A stretch of DNA of 64,000 nucleotides from Promethearchaeota archaeon. GTDB lineage: Archaea; Asgardarchaeota; Lokiarchaeia; Sigyniarchaeales; SOKP01. Location of the stretch: assembly GCA_019058445.1 (NCBI GenBank), contig JAHPZA010000001.1, positions 96,001 to 160,000 of the forward strand. The letters are read 5' to 3'. Shown here piece after piece: positions 9,854-33,812 of the stretch (the first letter of the stretch is position 1; each line of letters opens with the position of its first letter). Position numbers and translations under genes: made by a program. Below the pieces are notes generated by a model, which saw only the letters and a program-made list of their open reading frames with translations, searched no databases and was not told the origin of the DNA.

Positions 9854-10028
9854 TGACTATAATCAACTGAAGATCTAAATGATCTTTTTAATTAATGTAA
9901 TTATTTATTATGATTTTAAATATTTGAATCTTAATTAAAAAAATGATTTCTTGTAGAATATCAATGATAATAGCTGAAGGATAGAAAATTAAGATTTAAA
10001 AAATGAGAAAAATAATAAGCTATTTTAT

Positions 10029-10490
10029 CTACTTCTTCCGCTTTGCGAAAAGCTGCTTCAACTCACCCATGATTGCCCCACGTAGGCTTTGAGGGCTTGC
10101 GGGTCGGCTAGGTCCGGGTGGTGGGCCTCCAGGGGGACCTCCGGGTGGACCTCCAGGGGGAGGTGGTGGACCTCCAGGGGGACCTCCGGGTGGACCTCCA
10201 GGGGGACCTCCAATAGAAGGTGCTATAGGTGCTACAGGCGCAGCGCCAGGAGAAGCTGGAGCTGCCACACCTCTAGTTTTTATAGCATTTAAATCGTTCG
10301 TCATCGTGTTAACTCTAGATTGTAGACTTGAAATTTGTGTTTTTAAATCAGCTAAAGATCCATCAACAAGGTCAGGTATTCGTAAAACAATTGTCATTAT
10401 TTTTTCAACAATGTCCCCAAACGCATTTACTTTTTCTTCTATTGGGGATTTCTTGGCTTTATCAAGGAAGCTTGCAAATTCTTCGGCTAT
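10029..10490 (-). CDS. coiled-coil + polyproline (GPPG)n + WH2-like helix protein
   Basis: Frame stays open 31 codons upstream of the track ATG (10397) to an ATA at 10490 preceded by GGTGA; GPPG repeats, PPPPP, C-terminal LRGAIMGELKQLFAKRKK. Confidence 0.7.
   Translation of the reverse strand: MAEEFASFLDKAKKSPIEEKVNAFGDIVEKIMTIVLRIPDLVDGSLADLKTQISSLQSRVNTMTNDLNAIKTRGVAAPASPGAAPVAPIAPSIGGPPGGPPGGPPGGPPPPPGGPPGGPPGGPPPGPSRPASPQSLRGAIMGELKQLFAKRKK
10110..10211. repeat. GC-rich 12-bp coding tandem repeat (GGACCTCC[A/G]GG[G/T]) encoding GPPG
   Basis: Visible tandem units inside the proline-rich ORF. Confidence 0.85.
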
Positions 10491-10648
10491 GGCTAATCAC
10501 CAATAATTTTTGTTAATAATTACATTTTGAAAGATTATTTTTTCTAATAATTATATAATAGTTTTGTTTAATAAAAATATGTTTTGATGCAAACTTACCT
10601 TATACCTTGAAAAATAAGAGTAGAAAAAAAGTATAATATATATAGGAC

Positions 10649-11269
10649 TTAACTCATCTCAGTGGTTGAATCCTTTAGTTTTAACCATAAATCGTCAAGT
10701 TCGTCTTGCATTTGAACAAATTGTTCAATTTCTTTAAGTAAAATATTTCTGGCCCTATCGAAATCTCTTTGTAAATCATTTAACTCGTTTTCAAGCATAG
10801 TAAGTTTACTTCCCTCAATCATTTTATTTTTAGTTTTTTCTATGCTTAAAGCTTTTTTAATTACGCCTGATCTCCTGCCGGCAATAGTAGTAAGAGCTTC
10901 TGCAAATAAATCTCCCCTAGTTGCTAAATCATCTTTTCGAATAGCTAGATCTTTGATTGAGTTAACAAAATCATTGCTTGCTTCAATATATTTATCATTT
11001 TTGTGGATAAAATCTTGATAGTAATTTATTTCATCATCTTTTACATTTGATTTTGATTCTCTTGCAAGGGTTTGCATTTGTTTTAACACATCTCTAAATG
11101 TTCGATTAAGCAATTGCCGGGCGATATTTAATTTCGCAATATTGTCTGCAAGTTTTTTATGAGAATCAGAAACTGTTCTCTGTAATCTTGCGACTTTTTT
11201 AAGATGGGAAGCTAAATCTTTTTCCATTTTCGCAAGATCTAATTCATCTTCATGGGTTATAATTGGCAT
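10649..11269 (-). CDS. all-helical coiled-coil protein, BAR/IMD-like size
   Basis: 206 aa of continuous amphipathic helices, no Pro after residue 2. Confidence 0.55.
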   Translation of the reverse strand: MPIITHEDELDLAKMEKDLASHLKKVARLQRTVSDSHKKLADNIAKLNIARQLLNRTFRDVLKQMQTLARESKSNVKDDEINYYQDFIHKNDKYIEASNDFVNSIKDLAIRKDDLATRGDLFAEALTTIAGRRSGVIKKALSIEKTKNKMIEGSKLTMLENELNDLQRDFDRARNILLKEIEQFVQMQDELDDLWLKLKDSTTEMS

Positions 11270-11359
11270 TTTATCAAATCTCGAAAAAATTTTTTGTTTT
11301 ATTCAACTACGTTATTATGATCATAATAACTTTTTTTATATATTTTTATGCAATCAAGT

Positions 11360-12394
11360 TCAGAAAGGAAAAATCGCAGTAATGATATTATCTTTATAGT
11401 TAGCCTTTATGACTTTAGCTTGTATTTCTTTTCCTAGTAAATTATCCGAATATTGAAATGGCTTATTTAGAAGTATCTTTATTCCAATGTCTTTAGCAAT
11501 TTTGCCTATGCATTCATTCGGCCATCTTCCTATGGAGACTATTTCTAATTTTATAACATCCCCCTTTCTATACGGTAAAGGCATACCTACTTTTCTTTTT
11601 TGGATATTAAAATCCGTAGGGCCCAGTTTTAATTTTAAATCATATCTCCTTTCTAGTTTAGATAATTGTTTATAAAAGTAGTCCCATGATTTAGGTCTAA
11701 TTTTTTTCAATTTTCGACCTGTTTTATAAACTAAATATTTTTGAATTCCGAGTTGAATTTTTTTCTTAGAAAATCCTTGATTTCTTAAATTAATTACGAA
11801 TTCAATGATATCTTCGATATCCTTGTCATTCTCTCCAGGAAACCAAACCGGAGCTAATAAAACGTCGATATTTGTATTAAGTATCGAATATATGTTTTTA
11901 ATTAAGTTTTTTAAATCATAATTTTTACAATCACAAAAATATTCGGCTTTTTCTTGGTTTAAGGTATTGAGGCTAATGTTTATACGTGAAAGTTGGACAT
12001 CTGCCAATTTTTTTATATTTTCATTAGTTAATAATAACCCGTTACTTTGCATCGAAATGGTTTTCACACCTTCTAATTCCCAGAGCATTTCTATTAAACC
12101 AAATAATTCAGAGTATAATAAGATTTCTCCATAAGGAGCTAAGTGAATTTCTATATTGTATGATCCTTTAATGTCTATGAGTTGCTTAATTTTTTGAATT
12201 AAATATTGAGGTTCTACGATAAAATTATTTATAAAATCTCCTGCGCTCACAAAACAATATTTACATTTGAGATTACAAAGGGTTAGAGGTTTGAGTTCAA
12301 TAATATTTGTCCCCCGATCAATTACACCTATGAAATCGACTCCATAGAGCGGAATAGCCGAGCTTTGATTGACATAAATCGTATTTGGACTCAT
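11360..12394 (-). CDS. radical SAM protein with C-terminal TRAM-like domain
   Basis: CNLKCKYC motif, GEILLY, SNG. Confidence 0.85.
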   Translation of the reverse strand: MSPNTIYVNQSSAIPLYGVDFIGVIDRGTNIIELKPLTLCNLKCKYCFVSAGDFINNFIVEPQYLIQKIKQLIDIKGSYNIEIHLAPYGEILLYSELFGLIEMLWELEGVKTISMQSNGLLLTNENIKKLADVQLSRINISLNTLNQEKAEYFCDCKNYDLKNLIKNIYSILNTNIDVLLAPVWFPGENDKDIEDIIEFVINLRNQGFSKKKIQLGIQKYLVYKTGRKLKKIRPKSWDYFYKQLSKLERRYDLKLKLGPTDFNIQKRKVGMPLPYRKGDVIKLEIVSIGRWPNECIGKIAKDIGIKILLNKPFQYSDNLLGKEIQAKVIKANYKDNIITAIFPF

Positions 12395-12406
12395 TTTGGG
12401 ATATGG

Positions 12407-13480
12407 TTATAATTTATATCTTAATATACCTACAATGGAACCTAAATCTATTATTTGTTGACCAGTAGAAGTTTGACTACTAACTATATCAACTTCCCCT
12501 CCAGAATATTCCACGTTGGTAATAATTCTCTCAATACTAAGTTTTTGAGTTTTTGAAGTCCCTCGAATTAATATATCTGCCACAAATAATTGTTTAATAG
12601 CACCCCTCTCAGAAGCTTCGCTGTTTTCATTAATACCAATTGAAATTAAATCGGGGTCTGTATTAAATAATTTAAAAATTTCTTCAATTTTTTCCGTTTC
12701 TTGTAATATTTTTATTTTCTCTTTTAATCCCGCCAATTCTTTAGATTTTAATGTCTCTCGAATAGCACTTTCCGTACCGGAGCTAGCGTGTATGCTTCTA
12801 ATTTTATGTATGTAATTGGGATTATATTTTTCTTTTAAATAATTTAGTAATAAATCTCTTGTATTTCCCGGGCCACAAAAAACAATTAAATTAATATCAG
12901 TTGAGTTTAGATTTTCTTCAATAATTTTTTTTAAATTTTCAAAAAAGTCAGTTAACGCTTTATTTCTTTGTGATTGTTCGTATCTTTTACCTGGTATGTG
13001 TGATTTTATTGTAGCTATCTTATTTTGACTAAAGTTTGTAATAATTTCGATTGTTGCAAGTCCCGTTTCAATCGCTATCATTAATATTACAAAGTTAGAC
13101 TCAAACTTAGAGGATTGTTTTAATCTTTTCATTTCTTGAGAAGACCATTTTTCTTTTATGATCGCAATTTTCTGTCCTTTTTCGATATTAAAGGTATGGT
13201 ATGTACCAAAACTTACAAAATCTTCTGGTCCCTCTATAATTGTCCCTTTAACTCTCAATCTATTTGAAAATTCATGAAAGGAAACATCCTCAACATTTAA
13301 TTTTAAAAACATAGGTTTTCTCTCACCTTTAGAGCCCTCTTTAAGTACTACTCTTCTTTGGGTTCGCGCAGCGACTTTATCATTTTTCGAGATGATATTA
13401 TACAGTGTCCACAGATCGTTTAAATTTTCTATTTTAACGATAATCTCTCCTTGTTTTTGATTGATTTCACGTATTTTCAA
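12407..13480 (-). CDS. pelA: pelota (Dom34) ribosome rescue factor
   Basis: NLNDLWTLYNII, RLRVKGTI, GTYHTFNI, IPGKR, eRF1-like three-domain layout. Confidence 0.95.
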   Translation of the reverse strand: MKIREINQKQGEIIVKIENLNDLWTLYNIISKNDKVAARTQRRVVLKEGSKGERKPMFLKLNVEDVSFHEFSNRLRVKGTIIEGPEDFVSFGTYHTFNIEKGQKIAIIKEKWSSQEMKRLKQSSKFESNFVILMIAIETGLATIEIITNFSQNKIATIKSHIPGKRYEQSQRNKALTDFFENLKKIIEENLNSTDINLIVFCGPGNTRDLLLNYLKEKYNPNYIHKIRSIHASSGTESAIRETLKSKELAGLKEKIKILQETEKIEEIFKLFNTDPDLISIGINENSEASERGAIKQLFVADILIRGTSKTQKLSIERIITNVEYSGGEVDIVSSQTSTGQQIIDLGSIVGILRYKL

Positions 13481-13610
13481 ACTTAAATCTAAACTCCAAT
13501 AAAATTTTCTTATATTATAAGAAGAATAGATAGTAGAAAAATTGATTTACTATTAGAATGAAGTGAAGTTTAAAAAAATAGAAAAAAAATAAAGAAAAAA
13601 GAAATCTGAA

Positions 13611-13760
13611 TTATCCCTCTCCTAAAGCCTGCTTAACCTTCTCTAATTCTTCCATACGCTTCCTTTTTTCCTCTTCTCGCTTTTTCATCTCTGCTTCGTC
13701 TGGCTTAGCTAGAGATACTCCTTTCTTAATTTCATTTTCAAGCTCTTTATCTATTGGCAT
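13611..13760 (-). CDS. unannotated 49-aa microprotein, WH2-like N-terminus + charged helix
   Basis: MPIDKELENEIKKGVSLAKPDEAEMKKREEEKRKRMEELEKVKQALGEG*; ATG preceded by AAGGTG; GC higher than flanks; T-rich tract after stop. Confidence 0.75.
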   Translation of the reverse strand: MPIDKELENEIKKGVSLAKPDEAEMKKREEEKRKRMEELEKVKQALGEG

Positions 13761-13835
13761 ATTTCAGCAACACCTTTTTTTTTTATCTTATTATAAAAAA
13801 ACTTATTTATAAGTTTTAGTTTATAGAAAAATCAT

Positions 13836-14285
13836 CTAAAGAATATCTAATTTCATTAAATATGCGTCCTCTTTTGATTGGTAATATTGATTTATTTTCT
13901 GTACTATTTTGAAGCCAAACTTACGATATAATTTTATAGCGGTAGAGTTTTTGACTTGTACATTTAGGACGACTTTTTTGATATCAGTTGATTCCTTGAT
14001 TTTTTTAACGGTGTTGAATAAAAGAAAAGAGCCATACCCTTTATTGTGATAGTTAGGATTAACCAAAAAATTAATTATATTTGCTCTATCAATTCTATCT
14101 TTTACTACAATAATGAACCCTATAATTTCTTTTCTAATTTTATTTTTTTCTAATTTTAAAAAATAGAGATTATTTCGAATTAATTTTTTTATTAAGGCTT
14201 TCGAAAATGCATTTTTATTGAACACCGATTTTTCCAGAAAAAAGATGTCATTTACATCTTTCGAAGATACTTGTTTAATTTTCAT
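13836..14285 (-). CDS. rimI: GNAT N-acetyltransferase (RimI/Ard1-like)
   Basis: VNPNYHNKGYG acetyl-CoA motif, N..AIKLYRKFGF, YY..EDAYLM. Confidence 0.88.
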   Translation of the reverse strand: MKIKQVSSKDVNDIFFLEKSVFNKNAFSKALIKKLIRNNLYFLKLEKNKIRKEIIGFIIVVKDRIDRANIINFLVNPNYHNKGYGSFLLFNTVKKIKESTDIKKVVLNVQVKNSTAIKLYRKFGFKIVQKINQYYQSKEDAYLMKLDIL

Positions 14286-15427
14286 TTAGATCCCTTCATT
14301 TCATGCTTGAAAACCTTAATGGGTGTTTTCTCTGTAATTTGACGGTATTCTCCTCTAAAAGGGATAATCTCTTCAACAAATCCATCCAAATTTTTATTTT
14401 CCAAAAATTCTATAAATTTATCTGTCAAAGCAATATAATATGGTAATCTTATTTTATTTTTTTCGATGGTTATTTGTTCTTTAGGGACATTAAATTTTGA
14501 GATAATTAATTCTTTTAGAGATGTTAAATTTTCGTCACTACCCTCAATTTGACCATATATAAGGAGCCCCTCCTCAGTTATTACTTCATATGGTAATTTA
14601 ATTGTTTTTGCTCTTCTTAAATAGCGGTTTTTTAATTGATGATAATCTTTTGCTTTAATTGTACAAAAATGAATTTTAAGAGAGGTTTTAGGAGCTAATT
14701 TTGTAATGAGCTTCATGGCCGTTTCTTTACTATTTTCAACAGTTGCAACCGTGTCTTTTTTTAATTTAAACCCTTTTTCCTTTAAATATTGACTATTAGG
14801 ATAACATATTTCAAATTCATTCAGATTAATGAATTCTGCTCCAATTTTATTTAAAAAAAGAATAAGATTTTCAAGATTATTGTTATATTCAAATCCGGGA
14901 ATTACAGGAACTTCAGCTCCCACAGAAAATCCTTTATTTAAAGCAAATTTAATATTTTCCCATTTATTTAGAGGAGGATGAAAGCGTATCTCATCTAGAC
15001 CAACTTCTGCTAATTTTTCTGCAATAGATTCATTGAAGTTCATTCCATTTGTGTACAAGTGTACATGAAATTTCTTCCCTTTCATTTTTTTAACATATTT
15101 TATGTAATCATAAGTTTTTTCTAAATTTGATTCTAAAAGTGGTTCTCCGCCAGTTATACTCATTCCTTTCGCATTGATTTTGTTAATCTCAATTAATAAA
15201 TCCTTATGAGAGAATACATGAATTTCATCAGCAAATGTTATATCCTTACCTCTCCTCTCTTCTGAGATGGGACAATACCATGAACAATGAGCAGGTTTTT
15301 GACATATGCCATTTAGAAATAATACAACTTTTACTCCCTTTAAACAAAGTTGACAACCTTTTGGGAGGTTTCTCCCCTTTATATAAAATGTGCTTCCTTT
15401 AGATTCTAAGATCTTGGTACTTTTCAT
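14282..15427 (-). CDS. archaeal radical SAM protein (PFL-activase-related family)
   Basis: LPKGCQLC, C-x5-C-x3-C cluster motif, ITGGEPL, GLDEIRFHP. Confidence 0.85.
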   Translation of the reverse strand: MKSTKILESKGSTFYIKGRNLPKGCQLCLKGVKVVLFLNGICQKPAHCSWYCPISEERRGKDITFADEIHVFSHKDLLIEINKINAKGMSITGGEPLLESNLEKTYDYIKYVKKMKGKKFHVHLYTNGMNFNESIAEKLAEVGLDEIRFHPPLNKWENIKFALNKGFSVGAEVPVIPGFEYNNNLENLILFLNKIGAEFINLNEFEICYPNSQYLKEKGFKLKKDTVATVENSKETAMKLITKLAPKTSLKIHFCTIKAKDYHQLKNRYLRRAKTIKLPYEVITEEGLLIYGQIEGSDENLTSLKELIISKFNVPKEQITIEKNKIRLPYYIALTDKFIEFLENKNLDGFVEEIIPFRGEYRQITEKTPIKVFKHEMKGSK

Positions 15428-16125
15428 CTTTGATATAATTTTTTTCGAATTATTGTCTTTTTATTTGATAATTTTTTGAGAACTTCTTCCGTTGATTCAT
15501 TTATATCAAGCGATCTTTTTAAAAATACCCCCGTTTTTCCATGCTTCTCTCTTTTTAAGAGAACTTTTTTTCGTTCTAATATGGTATCAATACCAATACC
15601 TAATACTTTGGCTGCTACTGCTTCATTATCAATTATAGATAGTTCATCATGTCCTTGTGTGTTTGGCTGAATTAAGACCAATCTTTTATCAATGCCCGGT
15701 ACTCTCATACCTAATTTTAATTCATTTAAGCTTATTTTTCCTCCAAAATCATAAAATTCCAATGATTTCTTTGGTAGTTTAGTTAATGGTATAGTAATAC
15801 TTTCCAATTCGCTCAAATATATATAAAGCTTTATTGAATCTTTTGGAGTTGCCATAATAATTTCTCTAAAATAATGTTTGAAGCCATTTTTATTTAATAT
15901 AAATTCAATTCGGAATGATTGAATTGGTTCCGTGAAAATAATATCTATATCACTATTTTTATGTACGTTCCCTCGTGCGATGCTTCCATAAACATGCGGG
16001 TTTAAGCCCTCAAACATTTTTAAGAAGATAGCAGCCCTATCTCGTTTAATTTTAAGTAGAGCCCAATCAGATTTAGTGTATAGTATTGATTCGGAATACT
16101 CTCTTAAAATCTTTTCTTTTGACAT
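15424..16125 (-). CDS. Pol-beta-like nucleotidyltransferase domain protein
   Basis: YGSIARG..SDIDI, RVPGIDKRL, GKTGVF. Confidence 0.85.
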   Translation of the reverse strand: MSKEKILREYSESILYTKSDWALLKIKRDRAAIFLKMFEGLNPHVYGSIARGNVHKNSDIDIIFTEPIQSFRIEFILNKNGFKHYFREIIMATPKDSIKLYIYLSELESITIPLTKLPKKSLEFYDFGGKISLNELKLGMRVPGIDKRLVLIQPNTQGHDELSIIDNEAVAAKVLGIGIDTILERKKVLLKREKHGKTGVFLKRSLDINESTEEVLKKLSNKKTIIRKKLYQR

Positions 16126-16128
16126 GAA

Positions 16129-16983
16129 TTAGGATAATTTTTGGGATTTTAATATATTTGATTCTACTAAATTAATGATTATCCCTAAAAGAATGGTCTC
16201 ATAGCATTTAAATAAACTCTTGCTTTTATCTAATATCCATAAATTAGTATTGGGAAGATTATAATCTGCTAAATGGGTGGATAGCAGTTTTATCTTTTTA
16301 CTTGTTAGAATTTTACTTGATTTCTTACTAAAAATAATAAACAGTTTAGACAATATATCCTCTTTCTCAGTAATGCCAGTGATATGTTTCTTGGCTATTA
16401 ATTCAAATTTCGGATTAATTAAAATCACTCCAGCATTATTTTTATCATATATAAGGGGAGTAATAAAAACCATTATTTTATGATGAGTAATAAGTATATA
16501 GTTAGAATTGGTGATCACTTCTTTTTGTTTTAGGGAGTGTAAGATAGAGGAACTTAGATTTGCAGATTCTAAATGTAGTTCTTTATCTAAATTACCATGA
16601 TTAAGAGAGCATTTATTACTAAGAACTATATTAATCACATCAAATCCATAGCTAGCCAAACCTTCGGTTAAAACGTTAAATAATCTATTATACTTGTGAG
16701 ATCTAATTAATAGAATTGATGGATTTTGCATAGCCTTCCTTTTTAAAACATGATTAATGGTTATAGTAATTTTTTTGAGTTTAACGGATTGATTTATTGG
16801 TTTAAAGGACTGAATATTTAATATAACCCGGGACAAATAAACGTTAGATAATGTGGATCTCCACCTAACTCTTTCCTTAAAAATTCTCACACTAACCAAG
16901 AACACAATTAATAATAGAATTACGACGGTATCAATGAAAATCCAATCAAACTGAAAAAAATTTATAGCCAAATTATTCAACAA
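16129..16983 (-). CDS. membrane-anchored degenerate alpha/beta-hydrolase-fold protein
   Basis: N-terminal TM helix; LASYGFDV and GVILINP strands, no GxSxG. Confidence 0.45.
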   Translation of the reverse strand: MLNNLAINFFQFDWIFIDTVVILLLIVFLVSVRIFKERVRWRSTLSNVYLSRVILNIQSFKPINQSVKLKKITITINHVLKRKAMQNPSILLIRSHKYNRLFNVLTEGLASYGFDVINIVLSNKCSLNHGNLDKELHLESANLSSSILHSLKQKEVITNSNYILITHHKIMVFITPLIYDKNNAGVILINPKFELIAKKHITGITEKEDILSKLFIIFSKKSSKILTSKKIKLLSTHLADYNLPNTNLWILDKSKSLFKCYETILLGIIINLVESNILKSQKLS

Positions 16984-17299
16984 CTTCCTTTATCCAATTT
17001 AAATATTTTTCAGAACCCTTTTCAATTTTAAATCCAATACATTCAGGTATATCATAGCTATGTATCTCACTGATCTTCTGAATAAGTAAATTACTTTTTT
17101 CCTCCGTGGTTTTTATCAATAATAGATGCTCGTTGTCTTCTTCGATGTTGCCTTTCCATGTATAGATGGAAAAAATCTTTTGAATAATATTGACACATGC
17201 TGCAAGGTTAGCCTCAACTAAAATTCTTGCTATGCTTTTTCCTTCTTCAATGGTTGGCACAGTTACAAGAAATAAATAGTAACTCATATCACACTTCAC
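16973..17299 (-). CDS. cutA: divalent cation tolerance protein CutA
   Basis: LAACVN..SIYTWKG..E..LLIKT..HSYDIP. Confidence 0.95.
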   Translation of the reverse strand: MKCDMSYYLFLVTVPTIEEGKSIARILVEANLAACVNIIQKIFSIYTWKGNIEEDNEHLLLIKTTEEKSNLLIQKISEIHSYDIPECIGFKIEKGSEKYLNWIKEVVE

Positions 17300-33710: not shown

Positions 33711-33812
33711 AGCCTCTGGGGGGACTTGAACCCCCGGCCGAATCATCCAATCGAATGTATTAATCGATCAATTGATTACGAATCAATCGCTCTACCACTA
33801 AGCCACAGAGGC
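33711..33812 (-). tRNA. tRNA-Thr(CGT) with ~30-nt intron at the anticodon-stem/variable-loop junction (~33741-33770)
   Basis: GCCTCTG/CAGAGGC acceptor, ATTGA-TTCGTAA-TCAAT, T arm GGGGGTTCAAGTCCCCC, extra hairpin TTGATCGA..TCGATTGG. Confidence 0.85.

Follow-up and report, generated by a model that had tools for sequence, protein, structure and literature searches.

The window, by which we mean the whole 64,000-nucleotide stretch of DNA analyzed here, comes from an archaeal genome with a G+C content of approximately 28%. On its minus strand, positions 13611 to 13760 hold an ATG-initiated coding sequence for a 49-amino-acid (aa) microprotein (P0001), an assignment that draws on conservation, purifying selection, and an AF2 model. 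The gene lies between pelota (12407 to 13480) and a RimI-like GNAT gene (13836 to 14285), all on the same strand, and the encoded peptide is acidic (pI 5.5). An earlier note on this DNA had described a clean open reading frame (ORF) with an RBS-like AAGGTG and a T-rich 3' tract, and we found each of these elements in place. Specifically, the Shine-Dalgarno-like AAGGTG occupies positions 13771 to 13776 (minus strand), 10 nt 5' of the ATG, and oligo-T runs extend past the stop codon at approximately 13571 to 13604 (minus strand). An A/T-rich, TATA-box-like element (13802 to 13816, minus strand) lies within the 75 nt that separate the GNAT gene from the microprotein gene. All three signals are conserved. 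A TATA-like motif occurs upstream, and T-runs follow the stop codon, in all eight orthologous loci compared, while an SD-like element has been kept 5 to 10 nt before the start in 8 orthologous loci. The TATA-like element points to a putative promoter belonging to the microprotein gene itself, and the T-runs likely represent an archaeal terminator. Taken together, the conserved TATA-like box, SD element, and T-runs point to an independent small transcription unit.

The microprotein gene is part of a ten-gene same-strand block (window positions 10029 to 17299, minus strand) that is conserved across family f1. The order of the block is CutA, an unknown 284-aa protein, a nucleotidyltransferase, a radical SAM protein, the RimI-like GNAT, the microprotein, pelota, a second radical SAM protein, a 206-aa helical protein, and a Gly/Pro-repeat protein. 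The conserved neighbors of the microprotein are the RimI-like GNAT and pelota genes and not cytoskeletal genes.

The ORF is a genuine gene under purifying selection. The earlier note had named conservation as a check on the microprotein, and this was borne out: a word-indexed search of 5.8 billion proteins returned 132 homologs of 44 to 61 aa, nearly all of them 49 to 51 aa long, with identities of 63 to 98%, and a match was present in 38 of 41 related genomes. Among 8 orthologs (42 aligned codons), dN/dS ranged from 0.04 to 0.22 where it was computable. In most ortholog pairs dS was saturated, yet only 3 to 15 residues differed. The expectation that annotation pipelines would miss the ORF did not hold, as NCBI and JGI list several homologs as "hypothetical protein."

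To describe the spread of the family, we used a taxonomy-based sample of 301 genomes from across the phylum. Matches at E ≤ 0.001 were found in 63 of the 68 genomes of family f1 and in 6 of the 7 genomes of family f2. Outside these two families, a single genome (1 of 226) was matched, and that match was marginal. Families f3 and f4, which belong to the same order as f1 and f2, also contained matches in the search of related genomes. As far as searched, the family appears to be restricted to one order; the prospect of an Asgard-wide family thus narrowed to the only order with confident matches in the 301-genome sample. Some homologs carry NCBI labels such as Thor-, Hod-, Hermod-, or Sigyn-archaeota. 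We set these aside as a sign of wider spread because the loci labeled Thor- and Hod- have the ten-gene order of the window.

P0001 contains a WH2-like pattern made up of Leu7, Ile11, Gly14, Leu17, and Lys19, followed by an E/K/R-rich helix. A WH2-style regular expression matched 25 times in the ORFs of the source genome, against 30 matches expected from shuffled sequences, and we therefore rejected the single-sequence motif as evidence by itself. The pattern reported in the earlier note is present, and family-invariant residues fall on it, but alone it occurs at chance frequency. The family in question is a Loki-order family of modules of approximately 45 aa, which was defined in this analysis and is without a database name. 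P0001 scores 85 bits against the family hidden Markov model (HMM), has residues matching all of its invariant columns, and contains both conserved blocks of the family (I-K-K-G-V-x-L-x-K and K-x-K-R-x-x-E-L). In the first block, I11, K12, K13, G14, V15, L17, and K19 are invariant in 28 homologs and correspond to WH2 core positions, which upholds the description of P0001 as a stand-alone microprotein with a WH2/beta-thymosin-like N-terminal half. In the second block, K32, K34, R35, E38, L39, K41, K43, A45, and G47 are invariant in the same homologs. Across 52 more diverse members, G14, L17, R35, E38, and L39 are still invariant. The second block, a charged helix bearing a hydrophobic stripe, is without a WH2 counterpart. 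The E/K/R segment, described in the earlier note as single-alpha-helix-like, is not featureless but forms this second strongly conserved block (K32, K34, R35, E38, and L39).

Individual positions vary within limits. Position 7 is Leu, Met, or Ile, while I11 and G14 are invariant in the 28 homologs, and the tandem and fusion copies of the module described below also carry the double hydrophobic pair in helix 1. At the LKKT/V-type site, position 18 is variable and position 20 is Val or Pro, with L17 and K19 invariant. P0001 reads Leu-Ala-Lys-Pro at this site, where canonical WH2 motifs have Lys and Val/Thr in place of Ala18 and Pro20, and some family members have the canonical four residues.

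An AF2 model of P0001 (input alignment A5 with 52 sequences; mean pLDDT, 92.7) placed helix 1 at residues 5 to 13, a loop that carries L17-x-K19 at residues 14 to 21, and helix 2 at residues 22 to 48. The model is without a globular core and has the thymosin-like layout of a stand-alone helix-loop-helix peptide. The conserved hydrophobic residues would thus lie exposed in the monomer and would need a partner to cover them, consistent with a peptide that binds a partner. Searching with the 49-aa model, Foldseek returned no match, and VIA-align (an all-against-all structural search) returned only long helices, which came from assorted complexes and had Z < 4 in every case.

We compared the family with WH2 in both directions. 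First, we searched with existing models. The earlier note had proposed scoring with the WH2 HMM (PF02205), whose gathering cutoff of 23.1 bits was reached by neither P0001 nor any of the 52 family members. P0001 had no match to this model at E ≤ 1, and the whole source genome had none at E ≤ 10. Subthreshold matches were seen in 1 of the 28 homologs and 3 of the 52 members (best, 16.5 bits; E = 0.007), and a tandem relative scored 13.3 bits. Subthreshold matches to DUF3006 (PF11213) were more common than those to WH2, occurring in 19 of the 52 members (best E = 4e-4). Those examined scored 11.8 to 16.5 bits (cutoff, 32.3) and covered only model positions 26 to 67, with the N-terminal part of the model absent. 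What we take to be a DUF3006-type N-terminal start was found in none of the forward-profile-search matches examined. The Pfam thymosin model did not match P0001 at E ≤ 1 and did not appear for the homologs at E ≤ 10 among the matches listed (the first 25 of 43 families), and an NCBIfam search with P0001 gave nothing meaningful.

Second, we searched with the family profile. Among 1.84 billion representative proteins, there were only 59 matches at E ≤ 1e-3. The matches examined were family members, Asgard fusion proteins, or one of five WH2-type repeat proteins (P0162, P0166, P0174, P0177, and P0180). Four of these five pass the Pfam WH2 cutoff, with scores of 45.8, 25.8, 80.8, and 23.3 bits, and the fifth is actobindin-like. 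The top PDB sequence match was an N-WASP tandem WH2 construct (3m3n_W), and the WH2 of MIM was also listed. Per-unit scores were weak (5 to 8 bits for N-WASP units and 13 bits for MIM), the significant E values reflecting summed tandem repeats. Aligning the family to 15 WH2 units with hhalign gave a probability of 94.7% over 22 columns, a value that is biased upward because the units were selected by the profile. On sequence grounds, the resemblance to WH2 is real at the level of the motif and falls short of formal Pfam membership.

The module also occurs in other formats. Exactly one other module-bearing protein is encoded in the source genome, a 258-aa protein (L010:1017-1793:+; G000:C3:76016-76792) that consists of an N-terminal Asgard profilin domain, one module, and a conserved C-terminal domain of approximately 55 aa and unknown fold. 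Its profilin domain matched Odin profilin 5zza_P (phmmer E = 1e-10), and in a Foldseek search it matched a solved Asgard profilin with a TM score of 0.88 (rmsd, 1.7 Å), with Loki profilins and then eukaryotic profilins next in line. The linker of the module has a pLDDT of <50 in the model of this protein. The profilin-module architecture comprises approximately 50 clusters, some with two to four modules; P0146 has four. Sister genera in family f2, including "Candidatus Lokiarchaeum ossiferum," encode tandem proteins of approximately 480 to 500 aa with 9 or 10 modules of approximately 47 aa each, arranged as two blocks around a different central segment. Examples of approximately 480 to 490 aa are encoded at L009:1194-2672:-, L011:1309-2748:-, and L066:1336-2802:-. 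Further fusions join the module to leucine-rich repeats (LRR) plus a zinc ribbon or to a ribbon-helix-helix (RHH) domain. Separately, a metagenomic protein of 412 aa (P0242) has the same profilin-like subfamily fused to a TrmB-type winged-helix domain, without the module. P0242 could be an actin-sensing regulator, or it could be a sign of nonactin roles for its profilin subfamily. The LRR, RHH, and TrmB fusions temper the argument for actin.

Both the stand-alone and the tandem form are present in cultured "Ca. Lokiarchaeum ossiferum" B-35 (genome G320). The stand-alone ortholog (P0250) has 55 aa, follows a GNAT gene, and is annotated as a 69-aa protein (UYP46132.1), and the tandem protein has 488 aa (G320:C1:4726360-4727826). 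Proteome and Lokiactin coimmunoprecipitation (co-IP) values for this organism are given under in-house locus tags, with masses, in Supplemental Table 2 of a preprint (bioRxiv 10.1101/2025.11.30.690169). Its monoisotopic mass (56.41 kDa), together with neighboring masses that fit in genome order, allowed us to map the tandem protein to GNAMCCOK_04085. The fitting neighbors were GNAMCCOK_04082 (47.31 kDa) and GNAMCCOK_04087 (57.98 kDa), the latter only if its ORF starts two codons downstream of the called start. The stand-alone ortholog was mapped to GNAMCCOK_02436, whose 8.24-kDa mass is the one calculated for the 69-aa annotation and whose tag falls inside the interval predicted from the accession offset.

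In the Lokiactin co-IP, the tandem protein had a log2(actin/IgG) of 4.53 (adjusted P = 0.0021), with 44 peptides and 70.5% coverage (bioRxiv 10.1101/2025.11.30.690169). In the same experiment, log2 values were 4.44 for Lokiactin itself, 3.97 for the best gelsolin (2DGel1), 2.1 to 2.6 for the other gelsolins, 1.34 for an Arf GTPase, 1.07 for profilin-2, and 0.31 for the other profilin (bioRxiv 10.1101/2025.11.30.690169). The text of the preprint does not mention GNAMCCOK_04085 (bioRxiv 10.1101/2025.11.30.690169). These values are strong evidence that the tandem form of the module associates with Lokiactin, possibly indirectly, as a co-IP is not proof of direct contact. The stand-alone ortholog was detected in 16 of 16 proteome columns, with a mean log2 of 18.4 that is similar to those of the gelsolins and above that of profilin-2 (bioRxiv 10.1101/2025.11.30.690169). 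This is direct evidence that it is translated in "Ca. L. ossiferum," and it answers the question of expression, for which the earlier note had suggested proteomics. In the co-IP set, the same protein was represented by 5 peptides (43.5% coverage) with a log2 of 0.57, which lies between the two profilins and was not significant after adjustment (P = 0.042; adjusted P = 0.105) (bioRxiv 10.1101/2025.11.30.690169). An association of the single unit with Lokiactin is weakly indicated by these numbers. As a separate observation, three further proteins that the preprint does not discuss ranked above Lokiactin in the co-IP: GNAMCCOK_00333 (37.5 kDa; log2 of 9.2), GNAMCCOK_02751 (67 kDa; log2 of 7.7), and GNAMCCOK_04250 (20.6 kDa; log2 of 5.1).

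We propose, with a probability of roughly 55%, that the microprotein is a lokiactin-binding peptide with a WH2/thymosin-like N-terminal half and is the stand-alone form of the ~45-aa module. What ties the family to actin is its natural fusion to profilin, together with the strong Lokiactin co-IP of the tandem relative. The source genome encodes lokiactin: it has six actin-family loci, and the highest-scoring one reaches 441 bits against the Pfam actin model. Loki actins have kept the LKKT-binding surface, and Loki gelsolin makes use of it (PMC9433394), which makes an LKKT-type binding site plausible. By analogy with WH2 and beta-thymosin peptides, the N-terminal amphipathic helix (Leu7 and Ile11) would enter the hydrophobic cleft that an actin monomer has at its barbed face. 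Gly14 would terminate helix 1, and the extended V15-x-L17-x-K19 stretch would take the role of LKKT/V on the actin surface. Helix 2 (residues 22 to 48, with a stripe of M36, L39, V42, and L46) might run along actin toward the pointed face or might provide a second contact or a spacer. As a result, free actin monomers would be buffered or handed over. By the same analogy, we infer direct binding by the 49-mer, its site, and the nature of its effect, which could be either sequestering or assembly promoting.

Two described systems provide precedents for this mechanism. In Leishmania profilin, an inserted WH2-like helix occupies the actin cleft, and the helix and the profilin contact one actin monomer (PMC10907219). 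The Loki profilin-module fusions parallel this arrangement in that profilin and a WH2-like element share one polypeptide. In the Leishmania protein, however, the motif is inserted within profilin, whereas the Loki modules, as read from sequence and model, are C-terminal and are followed by an extra small domain. In Crenarchaeota, the short C-terminal helix of arcadin-2 binds the hydrophobic groove of crenactin and depolymerizes or sequesters it, and the authors called arcadin-2 a functional analogue of thymosin beta-4 (PMC5173319). Arcadin-2 has 203 aa and, according to its authors, no detectable sequence similarity to actin sequesterers (PMC5173319). By its description, it differs from the Loki module in belonging to another lineage, acting on another actin, and being encoded in the actin gene cluster. 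Within Asgard archaea, the only WH2-like element described in the literature surveyed is the four-residue LKKT-type linker of gelsolins (PMC7444086, PMC9433394). That linker joins gelsolin domains and is neither a self-contained module of helix plus motif nor a protein by itself.

Among eukaryotic actin binders, the module most resembles WH2 and the beta-thymosins. With WH2 (PF02205; N-WASP, WAVE, WIP, and MIM), it shares a short amphipathic helix followed by a Gly, and at the same spacing it appears to have a Leu-x-Lys-Val/Thr-type stretch. WH2 motifs, including the tandem forms of Spire, Cordon-bleu, and bacterial effectors, also occur singly, in arrays, beside proline-rich regions, and with profilin. 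In contrast to WH2, the module scores below the Pfam cutoff, varies at the equivalent of the first Lys of LKKV, and always has an additional conserved charged helix of approximately 25 residues; the family is archaeal and was found in only one order. With beta-thymosins and actobindin (thymosin beta-4, ciboulot, and actobindin), P0001 shares the format of a stand-alone acidic peptide of 43 to 50 aa with an N-terminal helix, an LKKT-like motif, and a C-terminal helix, and the family profile retrieved the actobindin-like repeat proteins P0166, P0174, and P0180. The "Ca. L. ossiferum" ortholog P0250 has a longer helix-to-motif spacing, which we take to be of the type found in thymosin beta-4. Unlike beta-thymosins, the module is without a Pfam thymosin match, its C-terminal helix is longer and has a conservation pattern of its own, and sequestering is only a putative function.

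It is possible, although we consider it rather unlikely, that the module is a generic helical interaction or oligomerization unit whose partner is not actin. The likeness to WH2 would then be coincidental or convergent, and the co-IP of the tandem protein would be indirect. Several results fit such a unit. The motif alone occurs at chance frequency, the Pfam WH2 matches are subthreshold and fewer than those to DUF3006, WH2 does not explain the conserved helix 2, and the best structural neighbors are assorted long helices (Z < 4). The module has also been fused to LRR and RHH domains. Nevertheless, a partner other than actin does not account for fusion specifically to profilin or for a tandem protein whose enrichment in the Lokiactin co-IP is on a par with that of actin. 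Furthermore, in the search of 1.84 billion proteins, every match examined from outside the Asgard family was a WH2-type repeat protein.

A second alternative keeps actin as the partner and places the module on the side of the filament. The tandem protein would be a nebulin- or tropomyosin-like side binder, bundler, or ruler, and the stand-alone form would be a competitor for the site or its cap. The 9 or 10 regularly spaced, mostly helical units of approximately 47 aa are what such a protein would have, helix 2 is long and conserved, and the strong coprecipitation of the tandem protein and the weak coprecipitation of the single unit form the pattern expected for avidity on filaments. However, weak pulldown was also seen for low-affinity G-actin binders, namely, the two profilins (log2 of 1.07 and 0.31). 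The conserved residues match the core of WH2, which is a monomer binder, and profilin, the fusion partner, binds monomers. We regard filament side binding as improbable. Finally, a role linked to translation or the ribosome, such as that of a pelota cofactor or a substrate of the RimI-like acetyltransferase, is very improbable. In its favor, the order GNAT, microprotein, pelota, and radical SAM is kept in family f1 and, within family f2, in genus g17, where pelota is only ~40% identical, and the RimI model gives the GNAT a score of 84.4 bits. Against it, family f4 and genera g14 and g21 have lost this gene order; the protein, with a pI of 5.5, is acidic to neutral, unlike ribosome-binding factors; its gene has promoter-like and terminator-like signals of its own; no translation-related family appeared among the Pfam and NCBIfam matches listed for P0001 and its homologs; and the paralogous fusions point to actin.

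Given the profilin fusions and the copurification of the tandem relative with Lokiactin, the microprotein is probably an undescribed archaeal actin regulator. The known Asgard regulators of actin are profilins and gelsolin/cofilin-type proteins, and a WH2/thymosin-like module that comes as a peptide, as a profilin fusion, and as a ten-unit array would add a third class. It would also put a name on one of the strongest, uncommented proteins in the Lokiactin pulldown, in a cultured organism that has the module in both forms, stand-alone and tandem. Since it was found in only one order, the family says less about the eukaryotic ancestor than about the ways in which actin regulation can be invented or exchanged. 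We consider it doubtful that the module and the eukaryotic WH2/beta-thymosin motif are truly related by descent. If they were, one Asgard lineage would already have had all three WH2-type formats, and WH2-type control would either predate eukaryotes or have passed between Loki archaea and early eukaryotes. In that case, the stand-alone form would be an archaeal "thymosin," and the ten-unit protein would be an archaeal Spire/Cobl-like nucleator or filament organizer.

We made several additional observations in the window and its genome. The last gene of the conserved block (window positions 10029 to 10397, minus strand) is a 122-aa ORF (P0248) that explains a local G+C content of 0.56. We rejected the GC-rich region from 10000 to 10400 as a candidate RNA gene, since Rfam gave nothing there and the region is the Gly/Pro-repeat part of this protein gene. 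P0248 begins with a coiled coil, continues with a Gly/Pro repeat that includes poly-proline, and ends in an invariant amphipathic helix with a basic tail. We found no Pfam family for it, and its relatives (138 to 156 aa) start further upstream (alignment A7). Its layout recalls VASP/WASP-type proteins, and its N terminus resembles trimeric coiled coils. The motif of its C-terminal helix recurs in the extended helix 1 of P0156, P0163, P0173, and P0179, which are fusions of the module to LRR or RHH domains. A P0248-type amphipathic helix, preceded by poly-proline, also forms the C terminus of P0249 (G000:C10:674719-675966; L064:2220-3467:+), a 415-aa Arf/Rag-like small GTPase (Gtr1_RagA, E = 1e-26) with several paralogs nearby on contig C10. 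We dropped P0249 as a counterpart of the coimmunoprecipitated Arf GTPase (UYP48373.1) because it has no close full-length ortholog in "Ca. L. ossiferum" (best E = 8e-29). The 206-aa protein of the block (window positions 10649 to 11269, minus strand) is all helical and has only weak Pfam matches, to CDK5RAP3 (E = 9e-4) and to coiled-coil families.

Two of the six actin-family loci contain in-frame TAA codons (two at G000:C10:653495-654577 and one at G000:C9:593898-595019) and may be pseudogenes or assembly errors. The g17 orthologs of the microprotein (L055:4004-4165:+ and L058:4031-4192:-) sit directly after a RimI-like N-acetyltransferase gene and start with what we take to be the first five residues of thymosin beta-4, a shared N terminus that is probably a coincidence. 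Elsewhere in the window, a tRNA match at positions 33711 to 33812 (minus strand) spans 102 nt against the 71 positions of the model, which suggests that this tRNA gene probably contains an intron.
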